The notes beneath the pieces are model-generated. The model was not told where the DNA came from. It searched no databases and worked only from the letters and a program-made list of their open reading frames with translations. This document shows positions 4,111-28,302 of a DNA stretch of 64,000 nt, one piece after another. The stretch lies in NCBI GenBank assembly GCA_038046625.1, contig JBBSVV010000003.1:1-64000 (forward strand), read 5' to 3'. The first letter of the stretch is position 1, and the number at the start of each line of letters is the position of its first letter. This DNA comes from an archaeon. GTDB taxonomy: Archaea > Iainarchaeota > Iainarchaeia > Iainarchaeales > Iainarchaeaceae. A program made the position numbers and the translations under genes.

Positions 4111-4183
4111 TGCAGCTGCCGGGATTCGAACCCGGGCCAACAGCTTGGAAGGCTGTGATGCAAAACCGCTACACTACAGCTGC
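4111..4183 (-). tRNA. tRNA-Gly(TCC)
   Basis: GCAGCTG/CAGCTGC acceptor, ACAGC-CTTCCAA-GCTGT anticodon arm, CCGGG-TTCGAAT-CCCGG T arm. Confidence 0.93.
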
Positions 4184-5065
4184 TTTAAGGAAATCAGCAT
4201 GGGTCGGAACTATTCCCGTTTCCTTAAAAATCCTGTATTTTATTGAATGCTTAATATTGCTGGGTTTAATTAGTTTAAAAAAAGTATCCACGTGAGCCTG
4301 ATCGTAGATATAAACGCTTTTTCCGGATAAGCTTGCCTTAAATCCCAGTGAAACCAATGCGCACTTTACCTCATAGAGGAAATTTGGCGAACAGCTGATA
4401 AATTCGACTACCGCACTATTTTTTCTTCTTCTATGAAAACTTCCGTCAGTGTCGAATAAGCCCCTCAAATATGCTGCAAGAAGATTTCTGTCGTTGAGGA
4501 TTTTCCTTTGGATAAACATCCTGTTTTTTCTGTTTCCTTTCGGAAACCCAAACTCTTCAGAAAGATATGAAACAAGCCGCTTTGAATAAACCTGGCAGCG
4601 TATTGCCCCGTTTTTAACGATAAAAGTCGGCTCCAGTCCGAATAGTTTTTCAAACTTTTTTCCAATGCTGTTTTTCACATACGCATTATCTACAATTGCT
4701 CCGCATGTAATTGATACCCTGTAATTTTTTTCGTAAATATTTCCGTCGCCTGACATGGCGCCAAGGAATTCCGCAAGCTCTTTGCCTAGTTTCGGTTTTC
4801 GGATTTCTTTTTCCCCAAACTGGTCAAGTTCTATTAATTGCAATTTTTCAATTTCTTTTAAATCGAATCCTGTTTCTTTGCAGAGTGTTTTCAAATTGCT
4901 TAAAGATATCCTGCAATTTTCTTTTAAGTAGTGGAAAATCATTCTTTTTGTAACGCCGATTATATCTGCAATTTTTTGCCAGCCAAGCCCGGAGTGCTCT
5001 TTTATCTTTCTGAGAACTGCCGCCTGATGCCAAAGGCCAGTCTGCACAAATAGTTCTTTTGCCAT
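4169..5065 (-). CDS. Free-standing double-motif LAGLIDADG endonuclease with N-terminal HTH; stop codon inside tRNA-Gly
   Basis: LAEFLGAMSGDGNI and YLRGLFDTDGSF; HTH-like GWQKIADIIGVTKRMIFHY; visibly AT-richer than flanks. Confidence 0.88.
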   Translation of the reverse strand: MAKELFVQTGLWHQAAVLRKIKEHSGLGWQKIADIIGVTKRMIFHYLKENCRISLSNLKTLCKETGFDLKEIEKLQLIELDQFGEKEIRKPKLGKELAEFLGAMSGDGNIYEKNYRVSITCGAIVDNAYVKNSIGKKFEKLFGLEPTFIVKNGAIRCQVYSKRLVSYLSEEFGFPKGNRKNRMFIQRKILNDRNLLAAYLRGLFDTDGSFHRRRKNSAVVEFISCSPNFLYEVKCALVSLGFKASLSGKSVYIYDQAHVDTFFKLIKPSNIKHSIKYRIFKETGIVPTHADFLKAAVV

Positions 5066-5162
5066 TAAAATTTTGCGATTTTTGAATTTTTAAAGCATTC
5101 GGGGCCTTAGTGCCGGTGCCAAACAGTTATCGATTAAAACGAACACCATACTTTATTTATTC

Positions 5163-5813
5163 ATGGGGAAAGGCATGTTCGTTGTTTTTGACGGCGTTGA
5201 CGGCGCGGGAAAGGGAACCGCAGTGAAAGGCGCTAAGAAGTTCCTTCTCTCTAAGGGGATTCCTGAATCTTGGATCGTCCATACTGCGGAGCCCACGAAC
5301 GGATTTTACGGGAAAAAGGTTCGCGAGTTGCTTGTTTCTTCCCCGAAGCCTGAATTGAATGCGAAGCAGTTCCTGGATTTGTACGTTGCGGACAGGAAGG
5401 AGCATCTTGAAAAAATTATTGAGCCGGCTTTGCGTGAGGGAAAAATCGTTTTGTGCGACCGCTTCAAGCACAGCACTTTCGTTTACCAGCATTTGCAGGG
5501 GATTCCGCTTGAAAAAATCCGCGAACTGCATGAGGGAATGGCCACTCCTGATCTGGTTTTCATTCTGGACCTTCCGGTTGAGGTTGCGATGAAGAGGATA
5601 CTGCGCAGAAAAAAGCTGGACACTTTCGAGCGGGCTGCTTTCATGGAAAAAGTGCGTGCAGGCTTCCTCAAGATGAAAGAAATTTTTCCGCGTGAGGACA
5701 TAGTGTTCATTGACGCGTCGAAAAGCATTGGTGAAGTGAGGGCAAAAATAGGTTCGGTTCTTTGGAATAAAGTCAGGGAAAATGCGACCACCGGGAATCG
5801 AACCCGGCCCTGA
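5163..5813 (+). CDS. tmk: Thymidylate kinase
   Basis: FDGVDGAGKGT P-loop, ADR..H, VLCDRF, PDLVFILD. Confidence 0.95.
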   Translation: MGKGMFVVFDGVDGAGKGTAVKGAKKFLLSKGIPESWIVHTAEPTNGFYGKKVRELLVSSPKPELNAKQFLDLYVADRKEHLEKIIEPALREGKIVLCDRFKHSTFVYQHLQGIPLEKIRELHEGMATPDLVFILDLPVEVAMKRILRRKKLDTFERAAFMEKVRAGFLKMKEIFPREDIVFIDASKSIGEVRAKIGSVLWNKVRENATTGNRTRP

Positions 5814-5853
5814 GCCTTGGCAAGGCCCAATCATACCAATAGACTATGGTCGC
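5783..5853 (-). tRNA. tRNA-Gly(GCC)
   Basis: GCGACCA/TGGTCGC acceptor, GGGCC-TTGCCAA-GGCTC, CCGGG-TTCGATT-CCCGG. Confidence 0.93.
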
Positions 5854-5857
5854 ACAA

Positions 5858-5908
5858 CCTTTTTTCTTTTCCCGGAGAAAAGAAAAAAGCTTGGCCAAAA
5901 AAGAAAAG
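5858..5908 (+). repeat. Dispersed T-tract/A-tract repeat family B
   Basis: cc + T-rich tract, gaaaagaaaaaa, ttggcc, aaaaaagaaaag; same layout at 7743, 7975, 27011, 36553. Confidence 0.75.
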
Positions 5909-5977
5909 CCATTCTTTGCCAAAAGAAAAGAACCCTAAGCCTAACAGATTTTTCCGTGGCGAAATCTTTTAAATTGC

Positions 5978-7699
5978 TCATTTCAACTGGCTAAGTATAA
6001 CTGCTATTAAAGCCCCAAAAACCAGTATTCCAAGGCCTAAAACCCCTAGCAGGATATTTTGGCCGGTGAAAAGCTCCTGGATTTGCCCCTGCAAAGCCGG
6101 CTGTTGCGATTCGGGCTGCACCTCTTTTGCCTCGAGGGGCTGTTCCTGCACGGGCTTTTCCGGCACGATTATTTCGAATTCCCTTTCGACGCCGGCATTC
6201 ACATTTACAGTCACTTTTCCGGGCTGAATGTTCTCTATTTTTTGCGTGAAGAGCTTTTGTGCTGATGCCTCAATGTTCACATTGCTCTTTGTTTCCTTTC
6301 CCAAGTAAATTACAGTTATTGTGGCTTCCCCTTCTGCATTGCCGTTGTTTTTAAGCAGAACCCTGAGTTCCAAATTGCTTCCATCAATGAACGGGCTCAC
6401 GTCCTTGACGCTTATGTCGGCCGCTTTCTGTTCCGCGCCTTTCTTCTTCACGAGCTTTATTGTGCCGCTCATGTTTCCGTCCGGAAGAAGCAGGTACATT
6501 CCGTATGTGTAGTAGCCGTTCTTTGCCTCCTTGTCAGGCGCCTTCACTTTCCACGAAACCTCCTTTGTTTCCCGTGCTTTGAGGAAAATTATTTTGTTTT
6601 TTTGGTCCGCGCGGAAATCCTCGTGCAGCGCAAGCTCCACCGGAAGTATCGCGTCCTCTCCCGAAACATTGGTTAATTGTGCCTTGATTTCAAAGCTTTC
6701 AAGCGGTTCAACTTCGGAGGGCTTTTCGAGCTTCGCGTCAAGCAGGCGCGTGAAGAACTCAACCGAATTTATTTTTATTTTCGGCTCCCCGAGCTGTGTC
6801 TGCACCTGAATCGCTTTCGCGCTTTTCGTGCTCAGGATTAAGTCCGCGGCTTTGTTCGCGTCGATTGTTTTTGCTATGGTGAAGTGCGCCGCGTCAAGGT
6901 ATCCGGCCTCGCCATAAGTGCTGTCAACCCCTATCCAGCCGGTTCCCGGCAAATACGCCTCGAGCCAGCCATGAAGCCCAAAGCGCGTGCCGTCAAAGCT
7001 TATCCCCTTCACGTATCTTGCGGGAATTCCTTTTGCGCGCAAAAATGCGGCGGTAAGGTTCGCGAACTCATCGCAGACGCCCGCGCGCGAATTGTATGTT
7101 TGTTTCGCGCTGTATGTGGCGCTGTAGTAGTTCTCGAAATCGTACGCAATGTTCTGGTTCACCCACTCGGTTATTCCGCGTATGGTTTCTATTTCAGAGT
7201 CGCTCGTGAATTCGAGCCGCGCCTTGCTCATTATTTCAGGGTCGCTTGATTCAATGTAATCGCTCGGCTTCTTATACTCCGGGAATTCCTTTATCGGGTT
7301 GGTTAGGTTGTAGTCTTCCCCAAGGCCGATTGCAGCGCTCCTCCTGACCCGCGCCTCCCTAATGATTTTGAATTGAGGTGCTTCCGCATACTCATGCAAA
7401 TCATTTATTTTGTACACCGCGTACTGCACCCCGTTTTTTTCTCCCCGTATCGGGAGAATTTTGTTCCCGCCTATTTCCATGTGCTCGTTCAGTTCAAGGA
7501 GCTCCTGGCCCTGTTCCTGCTGCATTGTGATGAACATTATTTCCATTTCGTCGCCTCTCGTTATTGTTCCGGAAAACGAGCCAGTTGCCTCTGAGGTTAT
7601 GGTTACGTCCATGCTTTTCACGGTCGAGGGCCTGAATTCCTGCGCCGAAGCTGTTGAAAGCGCAAGAATAAACAGCAGCGCAAAAGCAATTTTTTTCAT
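5978..7699 (-). CDS. Secreted, C-terminally anchored transglutaminase-like protein
   Basis: Signal peptide; GVCDEFA..GIPARYVKG..HGWLEAY..WIGVDST triad; C-terminal TM helix. Confidence 0.9.
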   Translation of the reverse strand: MKKIAFALLFILALSTASAQEFRPSTVKSMDVTITSEATGSFSGTITRGDEMEIMFITMQQEQGQELLELNEHMEIGGNKILPIRGEKNGVQYAVYKINDLHEYAEAPQFKIIREARVRRSAAIGLGEDYNLTNPIKEFPEYKKPSDYIESSDPEIMSKARLEFTSDSEIETIRGITEWVNQNIAYDFENYYSATYSAKQTYNSRAGVCDEFANLTAAFLRAKGIPARYVKGISFDGTRFGLHGWLEAYLPGTGWIGVDSTYGEAGYLDAAHFTIAKTIDANKAADLILSTKSAKAIQVQTQLGEPKIKINSVEFFTRLLDAKLEKPSEVEPLESFEIKAQLTNVSGEDAILPVELALHEDFRADQKNKIIFLKARETKEVSWKVKAPDKEAKNGYYTYGMYLLLPDGNMSGTIKLVKKKGAEQKAADISVKDVSPFIDGSNLELRVLLKNNGNAEGEATITVIYLGKETKSNVNIEASAQKLFTQKIENIQPGKVTVNVNAGVEREFEIIVPEKPVQEQPLEAKEVQPESQQPALQGQIQELFTGQNILLGVLGLGILVFGALIAVILSQLK

Positions 7700-7742
7700 G
7701 CACAGAAATAGTGTTTCTTTATTTTAATTGCTTGTGCTGCAG

Positions 7743-7796
7743 CCTTTTTTTTCTCTTTGGAAGAGAAAAGAAAACTTTGGCGAAAGAAAAGAGAAA
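7743..7796 (+). repeat. Repeat family B copy
   Basis: cc + T-rich tract, gagaaaagaaaa, ttggcg, aaagaaaagag. Confidence 0.7.
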
Positions 7797-7899
7797 CCGG
7801 TTTTGACACTTTTCTTTGGTACAGCTTTTCAATGGCCTTTTCCTGCACTTTTCTTTTTAGCACGGATTTTTCTTTTCGTGCAACGAAAAGAAAAAAGTG

Positions 7900-7972
7900 T
7901 GGGCCCGGCAGGAATCGAACCTGCGATTTCTTCGATGTAAACGAAGCGTCCTAACCGCTAGACCACGAGCCC
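7900..7972 (-). tRNA. tRNA-Val(TAC)
   Basis: GGGCTCG/CGGGCCC acceptor, CTTCG-TTTACAT-CGAAG, GCAGG-TTCGATT-CCTGC. Confidence 0.93.
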
Positions 7973-7974
7973 AA

Positions 7975-8025
7975 CCTTTTTTCTTTTCTTGCGAAAAGAA
8001 AAAACGTTGACGAAAAAAGAAAAGG
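7975..8025 (+). repeat. Repeat family B copy, directly upstream of tRNA-Val
   Basis: cc + T-rich tract-ttgc-gaaaagaaaaaa-cgttgacg-aaaaaagaaaagg. Confidence 0.75.
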
Positions 8026-8121
8026 CAAGTCCTGTTGCTGGAACAGCGTAGAATGAAGTGCCCTGATAGGGTTAAAAAAGTTGGCTAAAAAGGGAAAAAA
8101 GGCTTCTGAAGCAGAAGCCGT

Positions 8122-8412
8122 TTACTTTGTTTCTATTATTATTCCGCCGACCATTCCCGCGAATACATTGTACAGGAATGCGCTTAGTGCGCCGCCTATG
8201 AATCCTAATACTCCGTAAATTATCGGAAGTATTATTATTGACAGTACTCCGCCAAAGAGGCCTCCCGTAATTCCTGCCCCGTTTCCGCCTGCTATTGCCC
8301 CGAGCACAAGCGATAATACCGTTAAGAGTGCCCCGAATATCAGGCCGATTACTGCGTATGTCACTCCCATGATTTTTGCCATGGACATGACGCCTATTTT
8401 CCTGATTTCCAA
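8122..8412 (-). CDS. Small membrane protein (DUF3566-like)
   Basis: IRKIGVMSMAKI..two TM segments..AFLYNVFAGMVGGIII; TTG start after gaggtgat. Confidence 0.75.
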   Translation of the reverse strand: MEIRKIGVMSMAKIMGVTYAVIGLIFGALLTVLSLVLGAIAGGNGAGITGGLFGGVLSIIILPIIYGVLGFIGGALSAFLYNVFAGMVGGIIIETK

Positions 8413-8521
8413 AAGAAATCACCTCGCACACACATTGCGTTGCTCCGTATAAATTACTTTCATTTTTTGGCGCTTTACGGAAGCCTTATATATGATTTAA
8501 TTGTATTAATTGTTGATTTCC

Positions 8522-8962
8522 ATGCGCAAAATAATGTATTTCAGGGTTGCTGGGCGCGACGTGCACCTGCCAAAGCTCATAGGCGCATTCATTCTTTTTG
8601 CTTCATTGCTCATGTTTGTGCAGTCTTCCGCGCAAATGTTTGATTCCTGGGACAACCTCAAGCATTATGATTCATGCATACTGAAAATCAATTCGAACGC
8701 TTCGCTTGATGGCCAGCGCGCCGAATTCAATTCGTGCTCCGACACGCTTTACAGGGCAACCGGCATTGTTGTGCGTGAGGATGTGCCAAAGCTTACTGCG
8801 CGCCAGTTCTGGAGCGGCTTATTGGGTTCCATAGCTAGCCTCTTGTTCTGGCTTGCGATACTGTTTGTGGGCTACGTGCTTTACAGGAGCGGCGACCTCG
8901 TCATTCCGATTGAGGAAAGAATAGTCACCGAACCTGAGCACCAAAGAAAAAGAAGGAAATAA
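8522..8962 (+). CDS. Hypothetical membrane protein
   Basis: ORF with two hydrophobic helices filling the gap. Confidence 0.7.
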   Translation: MRKIMYFRVAGRDVHLPKLIGAFILFASLLMFVQSSAQMFDSWDNLKHYDSCILKINSNASLDGQRAEFNSCSDTLYRATGIVVREDVPKLTARQFWSGLLGSIASLLFWLAILFVGYVLYRSGDLVIPIEERIVTEPEHQRKRRK

Positions 8963-8968
8963 GGACAG

Positions 8969-10345: not shown

Positions 10346-10394
10346 TTTCCAATCAACTCCTTTTCCATGGCTATTTTGTTTTTTTTCGCGAGAA

Positions 10395-10709
10395 TTAGTT
10401 TTTCGGAAGCTTTTCTCTTTTGAGGAACTTGAGAACAAGGTTTTTTTCCGCTCCTTTGAGGAGCAGTTTTTTCCTTCGGCTTTTTTCGCCGCTTTTAATT
10501 TCAACTCCGCATCCAAGCCTTTTTTTGAGCTCTTTCACGAGCCCTTTGTTGGCTTGGCCTTTGAGTGCCTTTTCCTTAACCTTGATTCTCAATGCGTTCG
10601 TCCAGGGGTTAAAGCCCAGAATTGCGAACTGTTTTGAATTCGGAATCACTTCCAATTCAATTTCAACATCATTGTTTTCTGCAACTGATTTAAGGTTCGT
10701 CAAAACCAA
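10395..10709 (-). CDS. DUF167/UPF0235 family protein
   Basis: VIPNSK..LRIKVKEKALKGQANKGLV..IKSGEKSRRK. Confidence 0.85.
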   Translation of the reverse strand: MVLTNLKSVAENNDVEIELEVIPNSKQFAILGFNPWTNALRIKVKEKALKGQANKGLVKELKKRLGCGVEIKSGEKSRRKKLLLKGAEKNLVLKFLKREKLPKN

Positions 10710-10887
10710 TTAAACCTCAAATTCCCCAAAAGGACTCGGGCTTCCAAAGCCGCCAATCCTCATAGCAAAACAATAAACTATATACATAAAGCTCGGTTAT
10801 GGGTATATTAATGTTAGGGTTCCGTTTGCCCCTTGGTGCTTTGGCACGGATTATATATTCCTCCCAGCCCCTTTTTATTGTACACAC

Positions 10888-11292: not shown

Positions 11293-11317
11293 AAAGCCGT
11301 CATTGCTTATTTCTTTT

Positions 11318-18829: not shown

Positions 18830-19020
18830 AGCGGGATTCAAAGAAGATTGTGAAGTTCTGTTCCCGCTGCGGCTCAACGGATTTGAAGCCGCTTTATTTC
18901 ATGGAAGCAATCGACAATAGAATGCAGTGCATGGGCTGCAATGTGATTGAATTCCCTGTTGAGGGCACTGAAAAGTTTCGGAAAGAATTTTTGGAGGGAA
19001 GTAAAAATGCCGGCAAATAA
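18826..19020 (+). CDS. Small Zn-ribbon protein
   Basis: FCSRCGS..CMGC; GTG start after ggtgat, overlaps both neighbours. Confidence 0.75.
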   Translation: MKRDSKKIVKFCSRCGSTDLKPLYFMEAIDNRMQCMGCNVIEFPVEGTEKFRKEFLEGSKNAGK

Positions 19021-22000
19021 CGAGGAAATCGGCACGGTAATAAGCAGCATGGATGGCCCTTCGCCGAGCGCATTGGATGTTGTTATTTATTCCGGAAAAT
19101 TGCACCGCGGCCAGTTCGTTGAATTGGATTACAGTGAAGGAACCCTGGTTGCGCTTGTAACCGATGTAGTGAAAACAAACAGGTATTTTGAGCGCGTTGA
19201 ATCCGTGAAGGAGTTCGAGCGTTCCGGCACGAAATTGTTCGAGCAGTTTCCTACTGCGGAGTGGGAATACCTTGTTGCAAAAACAAGGCCGCTTGGAGTT
19301 TATGATAAGGGCTTGATTAAGCGCTCGACTTTTCCGCCTTCACCGGGCACAAAGGTTCGGGTTGCGGAGAAGGAAACGCTTGAAAAGTTTTTGGGCCTTG
19401 ACCTTGAAAAGGGTTTGATGCTTGGGGAAATCGAGCACCACGGGGTTTTTGTGAAATTAAATCTCTCCCGCCTTTTCCAGAAGCATCTTGCGATTCTCGC
19501 AATGAGCGGCGCCGGGAAAAGCTATTTGGTTTCTGTTTTGCTCGAGGAATTGTTGGAGAGGAAGAAGGAGGATGGGCGCCTCGCTGTGATTGTGATGGAC
19601 GCGCACGGCGAATACCGTTCTTTTGCCGAGCCTGTTCCCGACAAGAAGCACAGCGATTTTTCCTCAAAATCCAGGTTTGTGCGCGCCTCGGAAATCCAGA
19701 TTGGTGTCCCAAAGCTTTCAATCGGTTTGCTTGCCGCGCTGATTCCTGGCCTTTCGGCGCCGCAGAAGCGTGACCTCGCAAGGGTTATTGAAAGATTGCG
19801 CAAGGAAATGAAAGATGGCCTCGGGCCCTTTGACTTCAATGCGGTAAAGGCGGAGATTATGAAGGATTCTGAAATGAAGGAAGTAACAAAGATGTCTCTA
19901 ATTGGGTGGATAATGTCCCTCGAGCAGCTTCACTTGTTTGGCAAGACTGATGCGCCCGGAATCAGCGATTTGGTGAAGCCGGGGCAGCTTACAATAATTG
20001 ATTTGAGCGACGTGATTGACCTTAAGAAGAAGCAGATTATTGTCGCGTATTATGCGCGCAAACTTTTTGATGAGAGGCGCGCAAAGCGTGTTCCTCCTTT
20101 CAGTATTGTTGTCGAGGAAGCGCATCAGTTCGCACCAGAAAGGGTTTCAAAAGAAGGTTCCATCAGCAAGCACGTGATTGAAACCATTGCCAGAGAAGGA
20201 AGGAAGTTCGGTGCGAGCATCTGTCTGATTTCGCAGAGGCCGGTTAACCTTTCAACTACGGCTTTGAGCCAGTGTGTTTCACCAGAAACTCAAGTGATTC
20301 TTTCAGACGGGCAGGAGTGTGCCATATCAGATTTCGAAAATAATTATTCCAAGACAAAATTAACAAGCTGCGATATTGAGAAAGGCAAATTGGAAGGGGC
20401 ATATATTTCGCATTATCAAAAAAATAATCCAAAGCAACAGGGGAAAAAATGCTTTGAAATAACTACTGTCGCAGGAAGACAATTAAAATGTACAGGCGAC
20501 CACCCAATTTGGACAAAGGGAAAAGGATGGGTTAATGCGGCGGATTTAACTTTCAGCGATAAGGTGGCTATATTGCCGACAATTAAATCATATCCAGGGA
20601 CTCCTGTTCTTGAAATATCTTCTGACTGCCTATCAGGTCTACTGCCTTCAACAATTAACAAGCAAAGATTGTTTGAAGAATTACAAGAAAAAGGTTTAAT
20701 AGATAAAGAAATAGAACCTCAAAAGATATTGGCTTTGGCGAGGCTCATCGGCCATATTTTTGGCGACGGTTCCCTGCATCCGCCTTACAAAAACAAACAG
20801 GGGCAGCATTCGCTGCGAATTACATTTTCAGGTTCGGAAGAAGATTTGCAGGAAATAAAAAACGATTTGGCATTTCTAGGCTTTAAGTCTGATCAAAAAA
20901 TAAGCAGGCAAGTCAAAACTTCATATTCAAACTTTGTAAATTTTGGAAAAAGAAAAATTCACGGAACCTCAATATGTTTCAAAACTGGCATTGTAGGGCT
21001 TTGGGCTATTTTAAGATTTTTGGGAGCTCCATTAGGGGATAAATCAAACACTAAAGTTTGTATGCCTAAGTGGATTTTAGATTCTCATATTTCCGTCAAA
21101 AGGGAATTCCTCTCATCTTTGTGCGGAAGCGAATGTTCTGCGATAAGGTGGGACGGAAAATATCCTGATAGGCCTATTCTCCCATTTTCCAAGGTTGAAT
21201 CGTTAAGCGGGAGCGGGCATTTGTATGCAAATAGTCTTATTTCTATGTTTCAAGATTTTGGAGTCAAGTCAAACTTATATGTAAGAGATTATGTGTGGAG
21301 AAAAGATGGCGCAAAAAGTCTGCAATTTATTATTTCGATAAATAGGTCGCGAAATAATTTGATTAATTTCTTGTCAAATGTTAACTATCGTTATGCTGTT
21401 AAAAAAAGAAGTGCGGGTTTGCATGTCTTAGAATATTTAAAATGGCTCAACATAAAACTTAATCAGAAAACAGGGCTGTTCAGCGAAGTAAATAAATCTG
21501 TCGGCGAAGTTGGTTCCAAGCAAACTTCATTGATTTATAAAATGCATAAGAAAGTTGTTGAAAACTGGGCAAGTATGGGTGTTGAAAAGTTACGACTCGC
21601 CCCGGCAGATAAAATACCCGCTTATTCGTATTGGATAAAAGAAAAAACAGAGTCTCTTTCGGCTGGTTTAATTTGGGACGATGTAGAATATATTGAGCCC
21701 ATTGTGCTTTCTGACGTAAGAGATATAACTGTTCCAAATCATCATTGTTTTTTTGCTAACGGATTTTTGACCCATAACTGCAACACCCACATTATTCTCC
21801 GTGTTACTAATCCTTATGATTTGGACCACATCAAGCAGACCAGCGAGGGCATTGACCAAAGGACTGTTGACATGATTACTTCTCTCAGAACAGGCGAAGC
21901 CATAATTGTGGGCGAAGCCGTGAATTATCCCGTGTTTTTCAAGGTGCGCAAAAAAACCGTGCAGGATTCGCGGCACGAAAAGTCCCTCGAGGCTTCCGCT

Positions 22001-22057
22001 CTGGAGTTTGAGGAGAACCGCGAGGAAAGGACAAAAGAACTTGATGATTTGCTGTGA
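19007..22057 (+). CDS. herA: HerA-family ATPase/translocase containing an intein
   Basis: HLAILAMSGAGKSY, DAHGEY, VEEAHQFAP, REGRKFG, SQRP, SQ|CNT. Confidence 0.92.
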   Translation: MPANNEEIGTVISSMDGPSPSALDVVIYSGKLHRGQFVELDYSEGTLVALVTDVVKTNRYFERVESVKEFERSGTKLFEQFPTAEWEYLVAKTRPLGVYDKGLIKRSTFPPSPGTKVRVAEKETLEKFLGLDLEKGLMLGEIEHHGVFVKLNLSRLFQKHLAILAMSGAGKSYLVSVLLEELLERKKEDGRLAVIVMDAHGEYRSFAEPVPDKKHSDFSSKSRFVRASEIQIGVPKLSIGLLAALIPGLSAPQKRDLARVIERLRKEMKDGLGPFDFNAVKAEIMKDSEMKEVTKMSLIGWIMSLEQLHLFGKTDAPGISDLVKPGQLTIIDLSDVIDLKKKQIIVAYYARKLFDERRAKRVPPFSIVVEEAHQFAPERVSKEGSISKHVIETIAREGRKFGASICLISQRPVNLSTTALSQCVSPETQVILSDGQECAISDFENNYSKTKLTSCDIEKGKLEGAYISHYQKNNPKQQGKKCFEITTVAGRQLKCTGDHPIWTKGKGWVNAADLTFSDKVAILPTIKSYPGTPVLEISSDCLSGLLPSTINKQRLFEELQEKGLIDKEIEPQKILALARLIGHIFGDGSLHPPYKNKQGQHSLRITFSGSEEDLQEIKNDLAFLGFKSDQKISRQVKTSYSNFVNFGKRKIHGTSICFKTGIVGLWAILRFLGAPLGDKSNTKVCMPKWILDSHISVKREFLSSLCGSECSAIRWDGKYPDRPILPFSKVESLSGSGHLYANSLISMFQDFGVKSNLYVRDYVWRKDGAKSLQFIISINRSRNNLINFLSNVNYRYAVKKRSAGLHVLEYLKWLNIKLNQKTGLFSEVNKSVGEVGSKQTSLIYKMHKKVVENWASMGVEKLRLAPADKIPAYSYWIKEKTESLSAGLIWDDVEYIEPIVLSDVRDITVPNHHCFFANGFLTHNCNTHIILRVTNPYDLDHIKQTSEGIDQRTVDMITSLRTGEAIIVGEAVNYPVFFKVRKKTVQDSRHEKSLEASALEFEENREERTKELDDLL
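20273..21778 (+). mobile_element. Intein with LAGLIDADG endonuclease domain (502 aa) in HerA
   Basis: SQ|CVSPET..CTGDHPI..LIGHIFGDG..FANGFLTHN|C; removal restores LSQCNT; AT-rich. Confidence 0.93.
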
Positions 22058-22207
22058 TCATCGTTCTGAAGTTTTCTGCCCGGACTTTTTTGCTGCATAA
22101 AATTTATTCATGAATTGAGTTTGTGTGCAACCTGTTGTCCTTCAGCTCCGCACCGGCAATGTGCCCCCCTTCAAAATCGCTTTTAAAGCCGGAATCCAAA
22201 CTCCTGT

Positions 22208-23707
22208 ATGCTCCCAATTGGAAAGACTTTCCTGTCCCGCATCACTTACCTTTCGGAAAAGAGGCAGGTTGTTGCGGAGTTCTCGAATTCCTCGGAAAAA
22301 ATTTCCAAGCGTTACTCTTTCTTTCCCCGTATGCATTTCCCGATGGAGGGGATTTCACAGGGTTCGCTGAAGGAGGTTTTGTCGCTTTATGATTCCAGGC
22401 GCTTCAAGGTTGATTTTGAGGAAAACCGTGCCGTGATTTTTGCCGCCACGTTTTCCGACCTGAAAAAAATAAATAATTTGCTTTCGGATTCCCTGGGCTT
22501 TTCCTCGAACCTCATTGAGCCTGAGAGGCAGTTTCTCATTGACAGGGGCTGGAGCTACTTTGATTCTTTCACTTTTTCTGCGGATGAGCCGCAGAGGGTT
22601 TCATCGCTTGATTTTCCTGATGTGGCGCTCGGCTTTCTCTCCGATTCCCTGCCCATGACGATGCGTGACCTCATTTCATCCAACAGGCAGCTGGCCAGGG
22701 AAATCGCGGGCCGCGTTTCCATGTCGAGGGTACTGCGTATCCCCCTATTGTCTTCGGAAATGCACAGGGCCGCTCCGGAGGTTTTTCTGGAGAATGTTTT
22801 TTTCGCTTCAAAAATGCCTGTCCCCATTTCTCCGGAAAAAAAGCAAAGCATTCCGTTGAGGGTTCCGCATAAGACGGAAATAGATTTTTCCGCGGTTACG
22901 CCGCTGCTCTTGTGCAGGCCGTTCTCGAATGCAGGCCCGGAGACAGTGAACTGTGCCTGCTGCAGGCCGGCTTCGCTGAATGATTTCAATGTCCTTGCGG
23001 ATACAATTGTGAAGGCGCGTTTTTTGCGCGAGGGCGCGTATTTCAATTCCGCGTCTTCTTTTTGGGCGGAGCAGTTCCACGTTTCAGGCCGGGACAAGGA
23101 TGCCAGGTCAAGGAGGCGCGCCGAGTATAATTACCAGTTTTTTCCCGTGGGGCCTTTTTCGCGGAATGAAACGGCGGAAATTCTTTTGGCGGATGCCGTT
23201 GAGCTGCAGGGGCAGGGCATTGCCGAAATTCTCGGCGTAACGGGGTGGAGCTGGTTTTGTTCACAGAAGGAAAGCGCATTTTCAAGGGAAACGAATGCCC
23301 TGCGCGAAACCATTTCTTCCCTTGAATCTTCCCTGGATAAGGAGCATACTTCCGTTGTTGCATCAAATGGCCTGTTTTTTTCGCAGGCGCTCGAGGCGCG
23401 GCTGGATTATTTTTATAGGAAGATTTTCCTCGAAACCGCTTCCTCGATTTTGTGTTCGGTTTCCGGCGTGCTTTCCGACAGGTCTTCGGGCTTTTTCTCC
23501 CCAAAAATAGCTGTTCTGCTGGAAGTTGCTTCTTTCCGCATCCTCAAAGGTTTTGAGGAAATATGCTCCTCGAACGGCATTGCAAGGGTTTCCACGGGAC
23601 CTTCAAAAGCCTTTGTGGACTCTTCCTCGGTTACGCGCATTTTGAAGGATTTTTCCGAGGCATACAAGTTGAATAGGCCGTTTGTAAGGCTCAAAACCCG
23701 TTTTTAA
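22208..23707 (+). CDS. Degenerate family-B DNA polymerase-like protein, probably inactive
   Basis: EIDFSAVTP..NAGPETVNCACC resembles motif A region; WFC; no YGDTDS. Confidence 0.65.
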   Translation: MLPIGKTFLSRITYLSEKRQVVAEFSNSSEKISKRYSFFPRMHFPMEGISQGSLKEVLSLYDSRRFKVDFEENRAVIFAATFSDLKKINNLLSDSLGFSSNLIEPERQFLIDRGWSYFDSFTFSADEPQRVSSLDFPDVALGFLSDSLPMTMRDLISSNRQLAREIAGRVSMSRVLRIPLLSSEMHRAAPEVFLENVFFASKMPVPISPEKKQSIPLRVPHKTEIDFSAVTPLLLCRPFSNAGPETVNCACCRPASLNDFNVLADTIVKARFLREGAYFNSASSFWAEQFHVSGRDKDARSRRRAEYNYQFFPVGPFSRNETAEILLADAVELQGQGIAEILGVTGWSWFCSQKESAFSRETNALRETISSLESSLDKEHTSVVASNGLFFSQALEARLDYFYRKIFLETASSILCSVSGVLSDRSSGFFSPKIAVLLEVASFRILKGFEEICSSNGIARVSTGPSKAFVDSSSVTRILKDFSEAYKLNRPFVRLKTRF

Positions 23708-23718
23708 CAACCCTTTCG

Positions 23719-23768
23719 CGCCGGAAACCGCCGGCGGTAGGGCGACTATCTTCGCTTTGCTCGATAGT
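23719..23768 (+). repeat. Repeat family A copy (intergenic)
   Basis: cgccggaaaccgccggcggta-gggcg-actatcttcgctttgctcgatagt. Confidence 0.88.
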
Positions 23769-23852
23769 AAGGTATTACGCTCGGAACTACCTTTTTTAAT
23801 TCTTTGCGTAGGAGTATTGGTAGATTAATAACTCGTTTTTTGAGTGTTTTTG

Positions 23853-24059
23853 ATGGCTAAATTAACCCGTTTTGAAGTGACGCGCCTGATTAGTGCGAGG
23901 GCTTTGCAGCTTTCCTTGGGGGCGCCGGCACTCTCTAAATCAGAAAAAGAAGGGACCCCGATTGATATGGCGCGCGATGAGTTCGCGAAGAAGGTAATTC
24001 CTCTCGCGGTTTTGAGGGAGTTTCCCGACGGGCACGTTGAAAGGGTTGAGGTGAACTGA
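23853..24059 (+). CDS. rpo6: RNA polymerase subunit Rpo6 (K)
   Basis: LTRFEVTRLISARALQLSLGAP..IPLAVLR. Confidence 0.95.
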   Translation: MAKLTRFEVTRLISARALQLSLGAPALSKSEKEGTPIDMARDEFAKKVIPLAVLREFPDGHVERVEVN

Positions 24060-24254
24060 ATGGGCAAGGCCGTTCCGAAGAACATCAAGAGCAAGGCCAA
24101 CACCTTGATGAGCACTTACCCTGACAAGGTTTCAAAGGATTTTGAGGCCAACAAGGTTTTCATTGATTCTTTCAAGATGCCTTTGAGCAAGGAGGAGCGC
24201 AATTTGGTTGCGGGCTTCATTGCGAGGACGAAAGCCAAGGCGTCAAGCGCCTGA
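24060..24254 (+). CDS. rps17e: 30S ribosomal protein S17e
   Basis: MGK..IK..YPD..DFEANK..SKEERNLVAGFI. Confidence 0.92.
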   Translation: MGKAVPKNIKSKANTLMSTYPDKVSKDFEANKVFIDSFKMPLSKEERNLVAGFIARTKAKASSA

Positions 24255-26288
24255 GATTTTTGTTGTCCCGTCATTTTCTTTTTCCCTTTCAAGCACGTAA
24301 AGCTTTCCTGATGCCGCATTCTCCATTTCCTTGTCATGCGTGATAATGAATATCTGCTCAATGAGTTCGGGCAGATGGTTGCGCATCATTTCGCTTAACT
24401 CGTGCACGGCATTCGAATCCAAATTATGAGTGGGCTCATCCAGCATTATCCATCCAAGGTTCTGCGTGAGGACCAGAGAAACCGCTATCCGGATTGTTAT
24501 GGCCGCGGCAGTCCTTTCACCTCCGGAAAGTATTCCCTCGACGCGTATCCACTCGCCGTTCCTTTGCCTCGCCATTATTTCGTAGCTGCCTTCATCCACA
24601 ATTATTTTTGCGCTTGTTAAGTCCTTGTAAGGATAAACTTTTTCCCAGATTTCGTCCATTGCGTCGTTTATCGTTTCTATCATTGCGTTCCTCAGTTCGG
24701 CCTGTGTCGCTTTTAGCGCCTGCGTGAAGAGCGCGAGTTTTTCAACCGCGGTTTCGTTTGCCTTTATTGTTTTTTCGAGTTCTTTTGCCTGTTCAATGCC
24801 GCGCTTCATCATTTCCGCATTGTCGCGCATCTGCTTCAGAAGTTCTGAAGCAGCGCTTATTTCCGAGCTTGCTTTTGCCTTTTTTTCCCTGAGCAAAGCC
24901 ATTTCTTCCCTTTGCCTGGCCATTTCCTTTTCGTCAAACCCTGTTTTGCGGATCATTTCCAGTGTTTGTTTGAGTTCCTTTTCGAGCGCGCTTTTCTGCT
25001 TTTCCTTTGCCTCCGCCTCTTTCGCGGCCTCGAAGATTTTTTTTGTTTCCTCGAGCTCCTGCTCGGTTTTCTTTTTGGCTTTTTTGTGCGCGTCTTTTTC
25101 CTTTTCGCGTTCCTCGAGCTCCTTTTCGTTCCTTTCGGTCTCTTCCTGAATTTCCCTTATTTTTGCGGTTATTTCGCGCTTTTGCCCCTCTAGCTCCTTT
25201 TCCAGCTTTTTCTTGTCATGCTCTTCCAGCGGCCTTTTGCACACGGGGCACTCGCTTCCCAGTTTTCCAGTTTCCTTTGCTGCCCTTGCGTTGGATTCGA
25301 GCAGGTTTTTTTGGACCGCGAGCCTCTGCCTTGCCTTGGAAATTTTTTCCATTGTTTCTTTCGCGTTTTTTTCCGCCTTCAGGATTTTTTCCTCAATTTC
25401 CGAGTTTTCCTTCTGCTTTTCGCGCAACTCCTTCTCGGTTGCCTTTTTTTCCCCGATTTGTTTTCCAATCCTTTGGATGTCCTCTTTCAGTGCTTCCGTT
25501 CTGGATTTCGTTTTTATTTCGAGTTCTTTAAGGAGGCGGTGTTCTCTTTCCTTTTTTTCCTGCTCCCCGAATTTTTCATCCTTTTGCTTCAGCTGCTTTT
25601 CGGTTTCCCCGAGCGCAACTTTTTTTTCCATGGCTTCTTTTTCCTTTTCCCGGATTTTTGTCTCGCGTTCCGCGAGCTCCTTTTCCGTGTCGCGCTTTTT
25701 GTGTTCCATGAGGAGGCTTTTCCTGTCTTCCGCCATTTTTTTTATCCGGTTTGCCAAAGTAACCGCGTTGGTGCGAACTTTTTCATAGCGGTCCAGGCCG
25801 AGCAGTTCATCGAATTTTTCCTTTCTTTGCGCGGGGCTCAGCTTCAGGAAGAAGTCTATTTGGTTTTGTTCGGAGTATATTGCGCGGCTGAACAAATCGT
25901 AGTTCACTTCGAGTATTTCCTCTATTTTTTTGGTCACTTCGCTTGTTTTTGGCCCGGCAATTGTTTTGCCGTTTTCCTTTAGGCTTGCCTCGTTGATGCC
26001 GTTCCTTTTCAGCGTCCTTTCCACAAAGTATTCTTTTTTGTTGTAGTCGAACTCCATTTTCACTACGCTTTTTTCCGCCCTGAACGGCTTTGCCATTATT
26101 GTTTCGTCGAGGCTGACCTTGCGCGCGTTAAGGCTCGGGAAGGTGCCGTAAAGTGCGAAGCATATGGCGTCTGTTACCGAGCTTTTTCCCGCGCCCATTT
26201 TTCCCACTATGACGTTCGTTCCCTTCACGAATTCCAAGTGGTTTTGGTGGTGGGTTTTCCAGTTCTCGAGGTAAATGCTTTTTATCAT
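24243..26288 (-). CDS. rad50: Rad50-like SMC-family ATPase (compact)
   Basis: GKMGAGKSS, CPVC zinc hook, LSGGER, MLDEPTHNLD, ITHD. Confidence 0.88.
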   Translation of the reverse strand: MIKSIYLENWKTHHQNHLEFVKGTNVIVGKMGAGKSSVTDAICFALYGTFPSLNARKVSLDETIMAKPFRAEKSVVKMEFDYNKKEYFVERTLKRNGINEASLKENGKTIAGPKTSEVTKKIEEILEVNYDLFSRAIYSEQNQIDFFLKLSPAQRKEKFDELLGLDRYEKVRTNAVTLANRIKKMAEDRKSLLMEHKKRDTEKELAERETKIREKEKEAMEKKVALGETEKQLKQKDEKFGEQEKKEREHRLLKELEIKTKSRTEALKEDIQRIGKQIGEKKATEKELREKQKENSEIEEKILKAEKNAKETMEKISKARQRLAVQKNLLESNARAAKETGKLGSECPVCKRPLEEHDKKKLEKELEGQKREITAKIREIQEETERNEKELEEREKEKDAHKKAKKKTEQELEETKKIFEAAKEAEAKEKQKSALEKELKQTLEMIRKTGFDEKEMARQREEMALLREKKAKASSEISAASELLKQMRDNAEMMKRGIEQAKELEKTIKANETAVEKLALFTQALKATQAELRNAMIETINDAMDEIWEKVYPYKDLTSAKIIVDEGSYEIMARQRNGEWIRVEGILSGGERTAAAITIRIAVSLVLTQNLGWIMLDEPTHNLDSNAVHELSEMMRNHLPELIEQIFIITHDKEMENAASGKLYVLEREKENDGTTKISGA

Positions 26289-26397
26289 GCGAAAGAATTA
26301 GGTCTGGAAAAAGTTAAAATGGGAGTCTTGTGCCTTTTTGGGATTTATAGCAGGCCAATAAAATATTTTGGCGATATTTTTGGTCTGCTATCTAGCA

Positions 26398-26445
26398 CCT
26401 GGCAGAGCAAAGCTCTGCCGGGCCTCGTACCCTACGGGTAGAAGG
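26398..26445 (+). repeat. Two-hairpin repeat family C
   Basis: cct-[ggcagagc aaa gctctgcc]-gggcctc-[gtaccc tac gggta]-gaagg; 20 nt identical in reverse complement to 38292-38311. Confidence 0.75.
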
Positions 26446-26487
26446 AACCACATTAAAATGCCGAAAACTTTCGTGGTTTGCTATAAA

Positions 26488-26751
26488 TCAGAGCAGCGTC
26501 ATACCCTCTATTTCCGCGTCCTCTACTTCTTTTAGTTTTTTCACTTCTTCAAGAACGCGGTCAATTGCCTTCTCGTCTTTCGAGTTAACCAGTATGCCGG
26601 CTTTTATTACTTCGACGCCGAAGCCTATTGGTTCGCGTTTCACGTCCTTTACTTCGCCGCTTTTTATGCCCTTTACTGCCTTTACCGTTGCGTCAAGTTT
26701 TTCCAGGTCTTTGGCGTTTATTTTGAGAATTAGAAGCGTTTTGTCCGGCAT
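26488..26751 (-). CDS. ef1b: Elongation factor 1-beta
   Basis: REPIGFGVEVI; preceded by the usual Zn-ribbon gene. Confidence 0.9.
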   Translation of the reverse strand: MPDKTLLILKINAKDLEKLDATVKAVKGIKSGEVKDVKREPIGFGVEVIKAGILVNSKDEKAIDRVLEEVKKLKEVEDAEIEGMTLL

Positions 26752-26778
26752 CTTATCACGGGCTCAAATTAGGGCTGC

Positions 26779-26934
26779 TTACGGGCCTTCGAATCCGCAT
26801 TCTTTGCACTTGTATACGAGGCTTCTTTTGCGCGCATCCAAGCTGCGGTCTATTTTTGTGCCGCATCCAGGGCACTTGAACTCAATGAAATCGTCCGTGA
26901 GAATTTTGTTGGTTGTAATGCATGTTTTTATCAT
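26779..26934 (-). CDS. DUF1610-type Zn-ribbon protein (51 aa)
   Basis: MIKTC..FKCPGCG..YKCKECGFEGP*. Confidence 0.88.
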   Translation of the reverse strand: MIKTCITTNKILTDDFIEFKCPGCGTKIDRSLDARKRSLVYKCKECGFEGP

Positions 26935-27010
26935 TGAAAAAACCTTATTTTTAGCGGCATTATTTGTCTAGTATTCTCTATTGAGTTACCTTTAAAAAGG
27001 TTGATTTCAG

Positions 27011-27058
27011 CCTTTTTCTTTCTTGCGAGAAAGAAAAACGCTGGCGAAAAAGAAAGAG
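27011..27058 (+). repeat. Repeat family B copy
   Basis: cctttttctttct-tgcg-agaaagaaaaa-cgctggcg-aaaaagaaagag. Confidence 0.75.
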
Positions 27059-27119
27059 ACGGGGCATATTTTTGGCCATAGAACCTTTAATTAAGTGTTT
27101 TTCACCCATTTTTTTGCAC

Positions 27120-27156
27120 GGGCCCGTAGCTCAGCCAGGATAGCGCCCACCTCCGC
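27120..27156 (+). pseudogene. Orphan 5' half of a tRNA-Arg-like gene
   Basis: GGGCCCGTAGCTCAGCCAGGATAGCGCCCACCTCCG; TATA-like tttaattaa at 27086-27094; no T arm or 3' acceptor strand follows. Confidence 0.75.
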
Positions 27157-27302
27157 AATCGAATTTTTTCCTAAGACTCGGATTTTCTCGGCTTAAACCT
27201 TTGCACACTTCAACCCCTGCTTTTGGTGCAAAGGGTTTAATGCCTCCAAAACCCGCAAGACGTCTTTCGGAAAAAATTTCATCATTTAGCGGAGGTGGTC
27301 AA

Positions 27303-27416
27303 ATGGTCGAAATTCCGATTCCAAACAAAGAAGAAATAGATTTAGCAGTAGAGGCTGAAGAGTTGACGGACAGGGAACTGTGGATTCTTAGCAAGTTTGG
27401 AGGTGATTTTGAATGA
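27303..27416 (+). CDS. Small acidic ORF (37 aa) coupled to the endonuclease
   Basis: SD ggaggtgg; MVEIPIPNKEEIDLAVEAEELTDRELWILSKFGGDFE*; ATGA overlap with next gene. Confidence 0.65.
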   Translation: MVEIPIPNKEEIDLAVEAEELTDRELWILSKFGGDFE

Positions 27417-28252
27417 ATCTCGCATCGGCAATCAGCCCTCTAAAATTGTATAATAATGCTTCAGAAGTACCTGCCATTATGGGCTTTGATTTTTCGTCAG
27501 ATTTGGCCGAGGTTTGCGGCATCCATGCGGGCGACGGATACCTTCGTAATGACGGAAAAAGAAGGGAGCTAGACATCAGCGGCGGCATTGATGAAAAGGA
27601 ATATTATGATTCGCATGTCGTGCCTCTTTTTGAACGAGTTTTTGGAATAAATATTACTCCAAAATTTTTTCCAAAACGTCATACTTACGGTTTTGTAATT
27701 CGCGACAGAAACATTGTTGAGTTTATGCACTCGCTTGGGTTTCCTTATGGGGCAAAAACTTTCACAGTTTCAGTTCCTGAATTTGTTTCCAATTCCAAAA
27801 ATTTGGATATACTATATAGTTTCATTAGGGGCGCTTTTGACACAGATGGTTGCCTAGCTTTTCAAAAGAAAGTGGGAAGCGGCTATAAAAGTGAAGTAAA
27901 GAGGAAGCACTCCTTTCCTGTAGTTCAGATAAGTATCTGCTCTAAACCATTTTGTGATGGGCTGTGTTCACTTTTCAGGAAAACCGGTTTTAACTGCAAA
28001 GTTGTCATGCAGAAACCTACTTATGACTATCAACACGTGAAATATGCCTTGTATTTGAGGGGTTATTCTAATCTTAAAAGTTGGATGCGCAACATTGGGT
28101 TCAAAAATACTTCAAAACTATCGCGCTATGAGGTTTGGGAGAAATTCGGTTTTTGTCCTACTAACATTTCTTTTGAGCAGAGAAAACAAATATTAAATAA
28201 TGAACTTGACCCCAATTCCTTCTATAAGCATGGGCTCGTCGCTAACGGATAA
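27413..28252 (+). CDS. Free-standing double-motif LAGLIDADG endonuclease; stop codon inside tRNA-Arg
   Basis: LAEVCGIHAGDGYL and FIRGAFDTDGCL; SD ggaggtgat; AT-rich. Confidence 0.9.
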   Translation: MNLASAISPLKLYNNASEVPAIMGFDFSSDLAEVCGIHAGDGYLRNDGKRRELDISGGIDEKEYYDSHVVPLFERVFGINITPKFFPKRHTYGFVIRDRNIVEFMHSLGFPYGAKTFTVSVPEFVSNSKNLDILYSFIRGAFDTDGCLAFQKKVGSGYKSEVKRKHSFPVVQISICSKPFCDGLCSLFRKTGFNCKVVMQKPTYDYQHVKYALYLRGYSNLKSWMRNIGFKNTSKLSRYEVWEKFGFCPTNISFEQRKQILNNELDPNSFYKHGLVANG

Positions 28253-28302
28253 GCACCCCGCCTTCGAAGCGGGCGATGAGGGTTCGAATCCCTCCGAGCC
28301 CG
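28232..28302 (+). tRNA. tRNA-Arg(TCG), atypical D-arm
   Basis: GGGCTCG/CGAGCCC acceptor, CCCGC-CTTCGAA-GCGGG, GAGGG-TTCGAAT-CCCTC. Confidence 0.85.

Follow-up and report, generated by a model that had tools for sequence, protein, structure and literature searches.

Why do two unlinked endonuclease genes of a tiny groundwater archaeon both run into, and stop inside, the transfer RNA (tRNA) gene that follows them? The question was raised by a stretch of 64,000 nucleotides (nt), here called the window, which comprises positions 1-64000 of the forward strand of contig C3 (G000:C3:1-64000) in the 986-kb genome G000 (57 contigs, 85% complete). The relatives of this genome are named Iainarchaeum, Diapherotrites and other DPANN archaea. 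Introns are common among its tRNAs, 25 genes of which were counted, and the window holds four tRNAs according to ARAGORN. Two of them, tRNA-Gly(TCC) and tRNA-Arg(TCG), are entered at the 5' end by a LAGLIDADG gene. The results described below make it likely that both loci are occupied by members of an extensive family of homing endonuclease genes, of the free-standing, single-chain LAGLIDADG type, in which each lineage is tied to one tRNA and the cassette homes via the tRNA locus.

At the first locus, gene 1 (4169-5065, minus strand; 298 amino acids (aa); open reading frame (ORF) and Pfam) covers nt 1-15 of the tRNA-Gly(TCC) gene (4111-4183, minus strand), which is complete and intronless (ARAGORN) and 88% identical to the tRNA of the same-genus genome G104. 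The tRNA supplies the last four codons of gene 1 and its stop, which is tRNA nt 13-15. At the second locus, gene 2 (27413-28252, plus strand; 279 aa) was recognised by its ORF, by BLASTP and by family profiles (E 1.5e-78). It covers nt 1-21 of the complete, intronless tRNA-Arg(TCG) gene (28232-28303, plus strand; ARAGORN; Rfam, 52.7 bits), which provides the last six codons and, with nt 19-21, the stop. ARAGORN and the ORFs thereby reproduced exactly the architecture that the original prediction had described for two unlinked loci, including the position of both stop codons within the tRNAs. An assembly artefact at the junction of gene 1 and tRNA-Gly is excluded, since positions 4107-4387 were spanned, with four differences, by a 281-nt contig of a different study. 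Contigs from four DNA sequencing runs were low-depth pieces of the same strain and contained neither an empty allele nor a joint.

Both proteins have the two motifs and the family match of the LAGLIDADG fold family, and for protein 1 the predicted fold agrees as well. BLASTP aligned the two proteins over 234 columns with 26% identity (E 5e-14), which identifies them as paralogs, and the alignment takes in the C-terminal stretch that had been singled out as similar. Protein 1 matched Pfam LAGLIDADG_3 at 1.5e-10 (41.6 bits, cut-off 22.5), and five other paralogs of the genome scored 31.8-57.7 bits. Protein 2, alone of the seven, had no Pfam match at E<=0.1, yet scored as given above with the family profiles. 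In gene 1 the first motif (aa 97-108, 4742-4777, minus strand) ends in GDG and the second (aa 196-208, 4442-4480, minus strand) in DTDG; the corresponding motifs of gene 2, located by paralog alignment and BLASTP, lie at aa 31-42 (27503-27538, plus strand, ending GDG) and aa 134-146 (27812-27850, plus strand, ending DTDG). The predicted catalytic acids are kept in all seven paralogs of the genome, and D107/G108 and D205-x-D/E207-G208 of protein 1 are invariant there and in 32 homologs.

An AlphaFold2 model of protein 1 (predicted local distance difference test score 93.4, predicted template modelling score 0.83) displayed a four-helix N-terminal domain followed by two alpha-beta-beta-alpha-beta-beta-alpha halves, the pseudo-dimeric fold of the family. 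The N-terminal domain (aa 13-65, 4871-5029, minus strand) is helix-turn-helix (HTH)-like, with weak Pfam matches to HTH_19/HTH_3 and with modelled helices at aa 13-25, 29-36, 40-47 and 55-65. Foldseek returned LAGLIDADG enzymes of inteins and introns as top matches (7qsu, 1.5e-10; 2dch, 8.7e-07; I-DmoI, about 1e-06), and a profile of the 32 homologs matched the solved TliVMA intein endonuclease domain (1.6e-13), PI-PfuI, I-Tsp061I and I-DmoI. No intein or Hint domain was detected in either protein by Pfam at E<=0.1, and each ORF begins at its own ATG behind a stop codon, which places both genes outside the intein-borne class; the description of double-motif enzymes devoid of intein parts thus stands. 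True inteins of the genome sit in other genes. One of these is a large ATPase-like ORF of the window (18947-22057, plus strand) with an in-frame LAGLIDADG intein, and three further intein-bearing genes lie on contigs C8, C38 and C44.

The association with tRNAs is not confined to the two loci. Searching the genome with both proteins (tblastn) uncovered five more free-standing paralogs and four intein-borne ones. Six of the seven free-standing genes first found adjoin a tRNA on the same strand, namely Gly-TCC, Arg-TCG, Gly-CCC, Glu-CTC, Leu-TAG and Ala. The Glu-CTC paralog overlaps its tRNA by about 46 nt and the Leu-TAG paralog by 11 nt, while gaps of 9 and 8 nt separate the remaining paralogs from an intron-bearing Ala tRNA and from the Gly-CCC tRNA, the latter missed by ARAGORN and found by Rfam. 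The paralog on contig C5 is the sole one without an adjoining tRNA. As a control, same-strand ORFs of >=60 aa whose ends fall in the interval from -30 to +75 relative to tRNA nt 1 were collected for all 25 tRNAs. Such an ORF was found at eight tRNAs. Six are long (279-382 aa), every one of them a LAGLIDADG gene; the remaining pair, of 88 and 104 aa, consists of mechanical ORFs in a tRNA cluster. The arrangement exceeds chance, and the enrichment of LAGLIDADG genes over other genes that had been expected was confirmed in this genome for all six ORFs of >=200 aa.

Two observations on further contigs are added here. An eighth, divergent LAGLIDADG-like gene missed by tblastn is located on C49 (216-1361, minus strand; locus L151) and is followed, at the contig end, by an ORF (2-196, minus strand) with an intein C-terminal-like block (..VHNS); judged from its sequence, this layout may represent a split-intein 'fractured gene' that uses the same cassette type. 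The genome also contains two tRNA-Glu(CTC) genes (C7 12442-12517 and C10 6367-6487). One is intronless and the endonuclease-linked one carries a 46-nt intron, a pair that fits the arrival of a tRNA copy alongside the cassette.

Protein 1 has 83 database relatives at E<=1e-5 in DPANN archaea and some bacteria. To follow the family beyond the window genome, one genome per species was scanned, which yielded 598 pattern matches, 501 of them confirmed by tblastn; the best 80 loci were kept. ARAGORN placed the start of a same-strand tRNA within -80 to +60 of the ORF stop in 49 of the 80 loci and within about 130 nt in 54, among which overlaps of 11, 15 and 16 nt were commonest. At 16 loci without an ARAGORN tRNA, Rfam at the gathering threshold likewise found none downstream. 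Reading of these sequences revealed tRNA genes broken by several inserts. In L016, L017, L022, L024, L026, L037, L061, L067, L078 and L046 the tRNAs carry two or three non-canonical inserts, in the D-arm zone, after the anticodon and in the T-arm, and such multi-insert tRNAs escaped both ARAGORN in intron mode and Rfam at the gathering threshold. Because intron-rich tRNAs were missed by both programs, an intron-tolerant alignment to 146 intronless reference tRNAs was adopted, in which long gaps are allowed (threshold 0.40, background <=0.36). It detected a same-strand tRNA in 64 of the 80 loci, and two further cases were recognised by ARAGORN (L069) and by eye (L047, where the tRNA is cut by the contig end). 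In 10 of the 80 loci the 3' end of an opposite-strand tRNA adjoins the ORF; the 3' ends overlap by 19-111 nt in nine of them, and in L031 the ORF ends 35 nt short of the tRNA, across a run of N. No tRNA was present at four of the 80 loci.

Orthologs of gene 2 (43-72% identity) occurred in 24 of 215 genomes of the phylum sample. A same-strand tRNA-Arg(TCG) follows at 23 of these 24 loci, and the remaining locus ends at a contig end. Fourteen of the 23 assignments came from ARAGORN and seven from the anticodon loop read by eye; in one case the tRNA is cut by the contig end and in one the ORF reads through.

Endonuclease clades track tRNA identity across phyla. In a tree of the 80 proteins and the seven of the window genome, a Gly clade of 38 rows (Shimodaira-Hasegawa-like approximate likelihood ratio test (SH-aLRT) 96) draws on at least four archaeal phyla (Iainarchaeota, Woesearchaeota, Nanobdellota and Parvarchaeota). 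Seven proteins form a Val-TAC clade (SH-aLRT 98), Gln-TTG clades are present, and a bacterial Ser clade of 11 spans eight phyla. On this 87-protein tree, 17 changes in the amino acid assigned to the docked tRNA were counted, compared with 35-43 (mean 40.4) when the labels were shuffled 300 times, a contrast that is inflated by relatedness. A phylogeny had been proposed as a check on the family, and its clades follow the docked tRNA.

Comparison of alleles provided signs of mobility. The tRNA-Arg(TCG) locus was present at >=89% identity in three of 22 other genomes of the family. Homology with the left flank shared by the alleles of G079, G152 and G096 (26863-27017, plus strand; blastn and sequences) ends at about the right border of this segment. 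G079 and G152 are empty, with 27-61 nt from the common left flank to tRNA-Arg, and lack about 1.2 kb (27018-28231) that the window carries. G096 contains a remnant of the endonuclease gene that comprises its final 45 codons (78% aa identity, E 3e-20) and still adjoins the tRNA, and G043 retains 111 codons of an Arg-linked gene. Full Arg-linked genes were found in G088 and G117, which belong to the same genus as G079. The G088 cassette, 76% identical to that of the window over 1087 nt, starts immediately after the promoter of the resident tRNA, at the point that tRNA nt 1 occupies in the empty allele. Since it is joined to a tRNA-Arg(TCG) whose D-arm and anticodon stem are unlike those of the empty same-genus allele, the tRNA has been replaced together with the cassette, as co-conversion predicts. 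At the position of C5:G68 in the three endonuclease-less alleles, the window tRNA-Arg has the compensatory pair T5:A68. The tRNA-Arg(TCG) locus therefore displays both the presence/absence polymorphism and the decayed copies of a homing endonuclease gene. Among 24 tRNA-Gly(TCC) loci from other genomes of the order, same-genus G104 included, not a single one carries the gene. The expectation of empty alleles in relatives held for tRNA-Arg(TCG) in G079 and G152; at tRNA-Gly(TCC) the G104 allele lacks the gene and is not a clean empty site. In G104 (L088) an ORF resembling the RNase P protein Rpp21 (1040-1369, minus strand) lies just downstream of tRNA-Gly(TCC), at which place the window has an unrelated gene; synteny is thus broken on both sides of this tRNA.

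Upstream of many cassettes we observed orphaned 5' heads of tRNAs. In the window, such a head, corresponding to about nt 1-27 (acceptor strand and D-arm), is joined directly to the left end of the second cassette (27120-27146, plus strand). It was read from the sequence and not called a tRNA by Rfam or ARAGORN. A 3' half that would match it was sought, and the genome has none. Among 53 loci examined for close copies of their own tRNA upstream, clear ones were found in L055 (nt 3-22) and L066 (nt 1-26) and weaker ones in L030 (nt 9-28) and L038 (nt 1-18). Upstream regions of the Gly clade contain diverged heads in many more loci, consisting of the acceptor strand and the whole D-arm, with a conserved TATA box behind them and the ATG about 25 nt beyond it. 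When 87 upstream regions were scored, 20 exceeded every one of the 87 ORF-body controls. As five of the 20 are complete tRNAs, at least 15 are orphans. The orphan heads extend to about tRNA nt 18-28. Of 14 docked tRNA-Gly genes that were examined, 11 have an insert in the zone of the orphan ends, after about nt 19-29, the positions being approximate. Docking of six of seven paralogs and of about 76 of 80 homolog loci, clades specific for a tRNA, and empty and remnant alleles together bear out a recurrent, tRNA-docked family with the traits of a mobile element.

How might such a cassette move and remain harmless? The compact unit of about 1-1.2 kb comprises its own TATA box and the endonuclease ORF, to which one subtype adds a hairpin leader and a small ORF. 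At its 3' end it meets a complete tRNA gene, which it either adjoins or enters by 10-21 nt. A TATA-like box within the last 15 or so codons of the enzyme probably serves as promoter of the tRNA. We infer that the enzyme cuts the endonuclease-less allele of its tRNA locus and that repair of the break copies the cassette plus adjoining tRNA sequence; nuclease activity, cut position and repair route are predictions. At many loci the cassette would sit inside a former tRNA, with orphan nt 1 to about 25 left upstream and a replacement 5' head given by the cassette. As the cassette supplies or adjoins a replacement head, the tRNA gene would stay functional without intron or intein. We consider tentatively a more specific version, which is possible and rather doubtful. 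Besides introns and inteins it would constitute a third route to harmlessness: the cassette would cut into the tRNA near nt 20-28 and carry a replacement 5' head with the tRNA promoter in its last codons, the orphan head would serve as homology arm for the next homing, and odd-position introns in this zone would represent immunity of host or element.

The stop codon inside the tRNA had suggested a different mechanism, in which endonuclease gene and tRNA form one transcript and RNase P, cutting at tRNA nt 1, removes the stop and couples nuclease output to tRNA maturation. Several observations agree with it: neither window gene has a stop of its own before the tRNA, no terminator-like site separates ORF and tRNA, the genome encodes an RNase P RNA (93.9 bits), and the position of the G088 cassette directly behind the resident tRNA promoter makes read-through plausible. 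The stop itself is uninformative in this respect. When the 146 reference tRNAs were read in three incoming frames, 80, 92 and 38 of them gave a stop within the first 25 nt, most commonly ending at nt 15, 10 and 11, which matches the observed overlaps. Incoming frames thus commonly meet a stop, so that conserved tRNA bases supply one to any ORF running in. From the sequences, the in-tRNA stop is a by-product of U8-A9-G10 and N13-A14-R15, and the informative point is rather that the ORF runs right up to the tRNA. Moreover, 19 of 54 homolog loci with a same-strand tRNA, and about 18 of 23 orthologs of the Arg-linked gene, have their stop before the tRNA; 10 of the 80 loci are convergent with the tRNA; and 18 of 39 archaeal loci have TATA-like motifs that start at -40 to -31 of the tRNA. 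The remaining 10-nt bins contained 0-13 such motifs, save a second peak of 17 at -100 to -91; motifs were counted because, in genes this AT-rich, the A+T profile preceding the tRNA gave no information. In the window, the TATA-like sequence ATATTAAATAAT lies in the last codons of gene 2 at -42 to -31 of tRNA-Arg (28190-28201, plus strand) and is kept in the G096 remnant allele, and a candidate box for tRNA-Gly lies within the last codons of gene 1 at -48 to -41 (4224-4231, minus strand). With the in-tRNA stop missing in many relatives, RNase P coupling is unsupported as a family trait, and this part of the original prediction failed as it was formulated. We regard one-transcript coupling as an unlikely explanation of the family; for the two window copies it is possible.

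The proteins might instead be domesticated, WhiA-like DNA-binding proteins with LAGLIDADG and HTH parts, no longer mobile nucleases, which regulate the adjacent tRNA or provide its promoter. The N-terminal HTH, a Foldseek match of protein 1 to WhiA (8dy9_I, 8.7e-07), the constant position beside tRNAs and the promoter-bearing 3' end kept by the G096 remnant all point that way. Set against this are both catalytic acids, retained throughout as described, and the HTH, which is N-terminal in protein 1 and absent from protein 2. The genes are sporadically distributed (Arg clade, 24 of 215 genomes; other tRNA-Gly(TCC) loci, none of 24), and decayed remnants and stop-interrupted copies occur, all of which makes domestication very unlikely. 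The orphan heads (nt 1 to about 25) upstream of at least 15 cassettes, together with the one at 27120-27146, would also be expected if the endonuclease gene lay in a giant bulge-helix-bulge intron or between split-tRNA halves, the upstream head being the true 5' exon and the apparently complete tRNA partly intron, and LAGLIDADG genes are a known cargo of archaeal rRNA introns (structures of I-DmoI and I-Tsp061I). Yet a complete, well-scoring tRNA follows each cassette, both window ORFs included; the window orphan mispairs with the 3' acceptor strand, while the proximal head has the compensatory T5:A68; the Gly locus and G088 lack an orphan; and most orphans have diverged from the functional head, with only 2-4 close copies in 53 loci. 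An intron or split tRNA of this kind is accordingly highly improbable. Chance overlap from tight packing in a very compact genome can draw on other overlaps, such as the ordinary one of 32 nt between a dTMP kinase (thymidylate-kinase-like) ORF (5163-5813, plus strand) and the 3' end of tRNA-Gly(GCC) (5782-5854, minus strand) on the opposite strand. It is refuted by the counts and has practically no probability: all six ORFs of >=200 aa that reach a tRNA 5' end are LAGLIDADG genes, six of seven such genes do so in about 1 Mb with 25 tRNAs, and about 76 of 80 loci elsewhere are docked too.

Several points weigh against the preferred reading of homing via the tRNA locus. One peptide pattern and similarity to protein 1 determined which 80 loci were kept, related genomes do not provide independent samples, and the labels of intron-bearing tRNAs derive from approximate alignment to a Gly-rich reference panel. 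The tree of 80 proteins plus seven from the window genome is the product of an IQ-TREE quick search and has several long branches. The Gly allele of G104 is no clean excision, since 458 nt of unrelated DNA replace the 989 nt of the window; no endonuclease remnant was found in these 458 nt by tblastn at E<=100. The tRNA-Gly(TCC) locus of the window lacks an orphan head, and at the six tRNA-linked loci of its genome no own-tRNA orphan scored above controls. The D-arm of the window orphan differs from that of the resident tRNA-Arg and appears by eye nearer to the G088/G117 tRNA. Finally, nt 6-43 of the window tRNA-Arg are identical to the empty alleles, and the duplication model leaves an intact tRNA, which leaves self-immunity unexplained. 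Candidates for protection of the occupied allele are D-arm-zone inserts and variant base pairs, of which T5:A68 is an example.

The left part of the second cassette contains additional elements. A conserved long hairpin of about 155 nt (27147-27305, plus strand), identified from genome copies and RNAalifold, follows the orphan head. Exactly four copies exist in the genome, each just upstream of a LAGLIDADG gene; the others are at C7 (about 31934-32092), C10 (about 7735-7888) and C49 (1493-1647), and one more was found in L122 (2430-2587). The consensus of five sequences calculated with RNAalifold has 50 pairs, nine of them with compensatory changes, and the hairpin has no Rfam match. In its outer 10-bp helix the anti-Shine-Dalgarno-like CCACCTCCGC pairs with GGAGGTGG, which precedes a small ORF, and thereby covers the Shine-Dalgarno sequence of the latter. 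This ORF of 37 aa (27304-27416, plus strand) ends ..DRELWILSKFGGDFE, and its stop overlaps the ATG of gene 2 (ATGA). It is one of four paralogous small acidic ORFs of the genome (37-47 aa, ending ..DRELWILxxFGGDFE; C7 31985-32218, C10 7621-7842, C49 1352-1702), each preceding a LAGLIDADG gene. A hydrophobic ORF of about 48 aa separates the small acidic ORF from the endonuclease gene at the Glu and Leu loci. Just before the orphan head, a repeat search revealed a second copy (27083-27115, plus strand; 73%) of a promoter-region repeat at 26988-27020. G088 has no orphan head at the point matching 27120-27146.

Upstream of gene 1, a TATA-like box TTTAAAAA was read from the sequence 22-29 nt 5' of the ATG (5087-5094, minus strand), a spacing from which the mRNA would be leaderless. 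Further upstream lies CACCGGCA (5111-5118, minus strand), a motif associated with host promoters. In a genome-wide octamer count it had 64 matches against 24 expected and occurred in about 20 promoters, including those of six of the seven endonuclease genes. The complete promoter motif, found upstream of many G000 genes, reads cGCACCGGCA, 4-6 nt, CCCC, about 10 nt and a TTTAAA box; this motif is probably a site for a host transcription factor. The sequence GCACCGGCA upstream of gene 1, also seen in L007, L019, L009, L023 and L012, was considered as a decayed head of tRNA-Gly. This reading was rejected on the basis of the same octamer excess, the number of promoters and its occurrence at endonuclease genes of other tRNAs.

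The family touches the long-standing question of why archaeal tRNA genes have introns at odd positions or are split. Protection of tRNA genes against targeting elements has been proposed as the cause, for which direct evidence was described as lacking in 2012 (PMC3293823), and the proposal is restated elsewhere (PMC4090602). If the third route to harmlessness were true, the family would be a concrete driver of the intron-rich, disrupted tRNA genes of DPANN archaea and the link missing from the Randau-Soll protection hypothesis. As far as partial texts go, a fungal case is unrelated (PMC7902536), and a study of endonuclease-bearing rRNA insertions in bacteria of the candidate phyla radiation (CPR) does not mention tRNA (PMC11270868). 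No description of a tRNA-docked LAGLIDADG family was found in the literature searched, in which subscription journals are thinly covered. Free-standing homing endonucleases are already known; what we did not find in the papers searched is a family that docks end-on per isoacceptor across DPANN archaea and CPR-type bacteria. It offers natural, testable pairs of element and target, with full, remnant and empty alleles in sister genomes, as well as compact natural meganucleases (predicted) whose targets can be guessed from their neighbours. For annotation, ORFs reading into tRNAs and intron-rich tRNAs missed by ARAGORN and Rfam are easily mis-called.

Among known systems, I-DmoI, I-Tsp061I, PI-PfuI and the TliVMA intein endonuclease domain share the fold and sequence family, the single chain with two motifs and both acids. 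These intron- or intein-borne archaeal enzymes are made harmless by RNA or protein splicing, whereas the genes described here are free-standing, have no intein domain, lie beside a complete tRNA and often encode an extra N-terminal HTH. WhiA likewise combines two LAGLIDADG domains with an HTH. It reportedly lacks the catalytic acids, its HTH is C-terminal and it is universally conserved in its hosts, in contrast to the sporadic genes found here, which keep the acids. In collaborative homing of cyanophages, the free-standing endonuclease F-CphI is said to be encoded beside an intron that interrupts its target in psbA. The inserts in docked tRNA-Gly genes (11 of 14), located in the zone where orphans end, are candidates for a similar protection of the occupied allele. 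Unlike in that system, the window tRNAs have no intron, and introns here would use the archaeal tRNA-splicing endonuclease, not group I splicing.

SegB of phage T4 reportedly spreads by cutting the endonuclease-less allele and co-converting neighbouring tRNA markers (PMC13096335). SegB and the free-standing enzymes of T-even phages resemble the present genes in that the endonuclease gene stands in a tRNA region; SegB differs as a GIY-YIG enzyme of a phage tRNA cluster that is not known to be placed end-on to one tRNA or to have a duplicated tRNA head. The genes reported here are cellular and of LAGLIDADG type, and each lineage is tied to one isoacceptor. Integrase elements of the SSV1/pNOB8 type also have their mobility gene beside or overlapping a reconstituted tRNA on the same strand, and a tRNA fragment is directly repeated at their other border (PMC3293823). 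The cassettes described here contain no integrase and measure only about 1 kb. Since their sole mobility-type gene encodes a LAGLIDADG nuclease, double-strand-break repair is a likelier route than site-specific recombination. In 'fractured genes', described as a free-standing endonuclease gene between split-intein halves (PMC2677866), the endonuclease gene similarly occupies the break point of a gene that is kept functional by other means. Here, the host gene is a tRNA, which would be restored by duplication of its head and not by trans-splicing.

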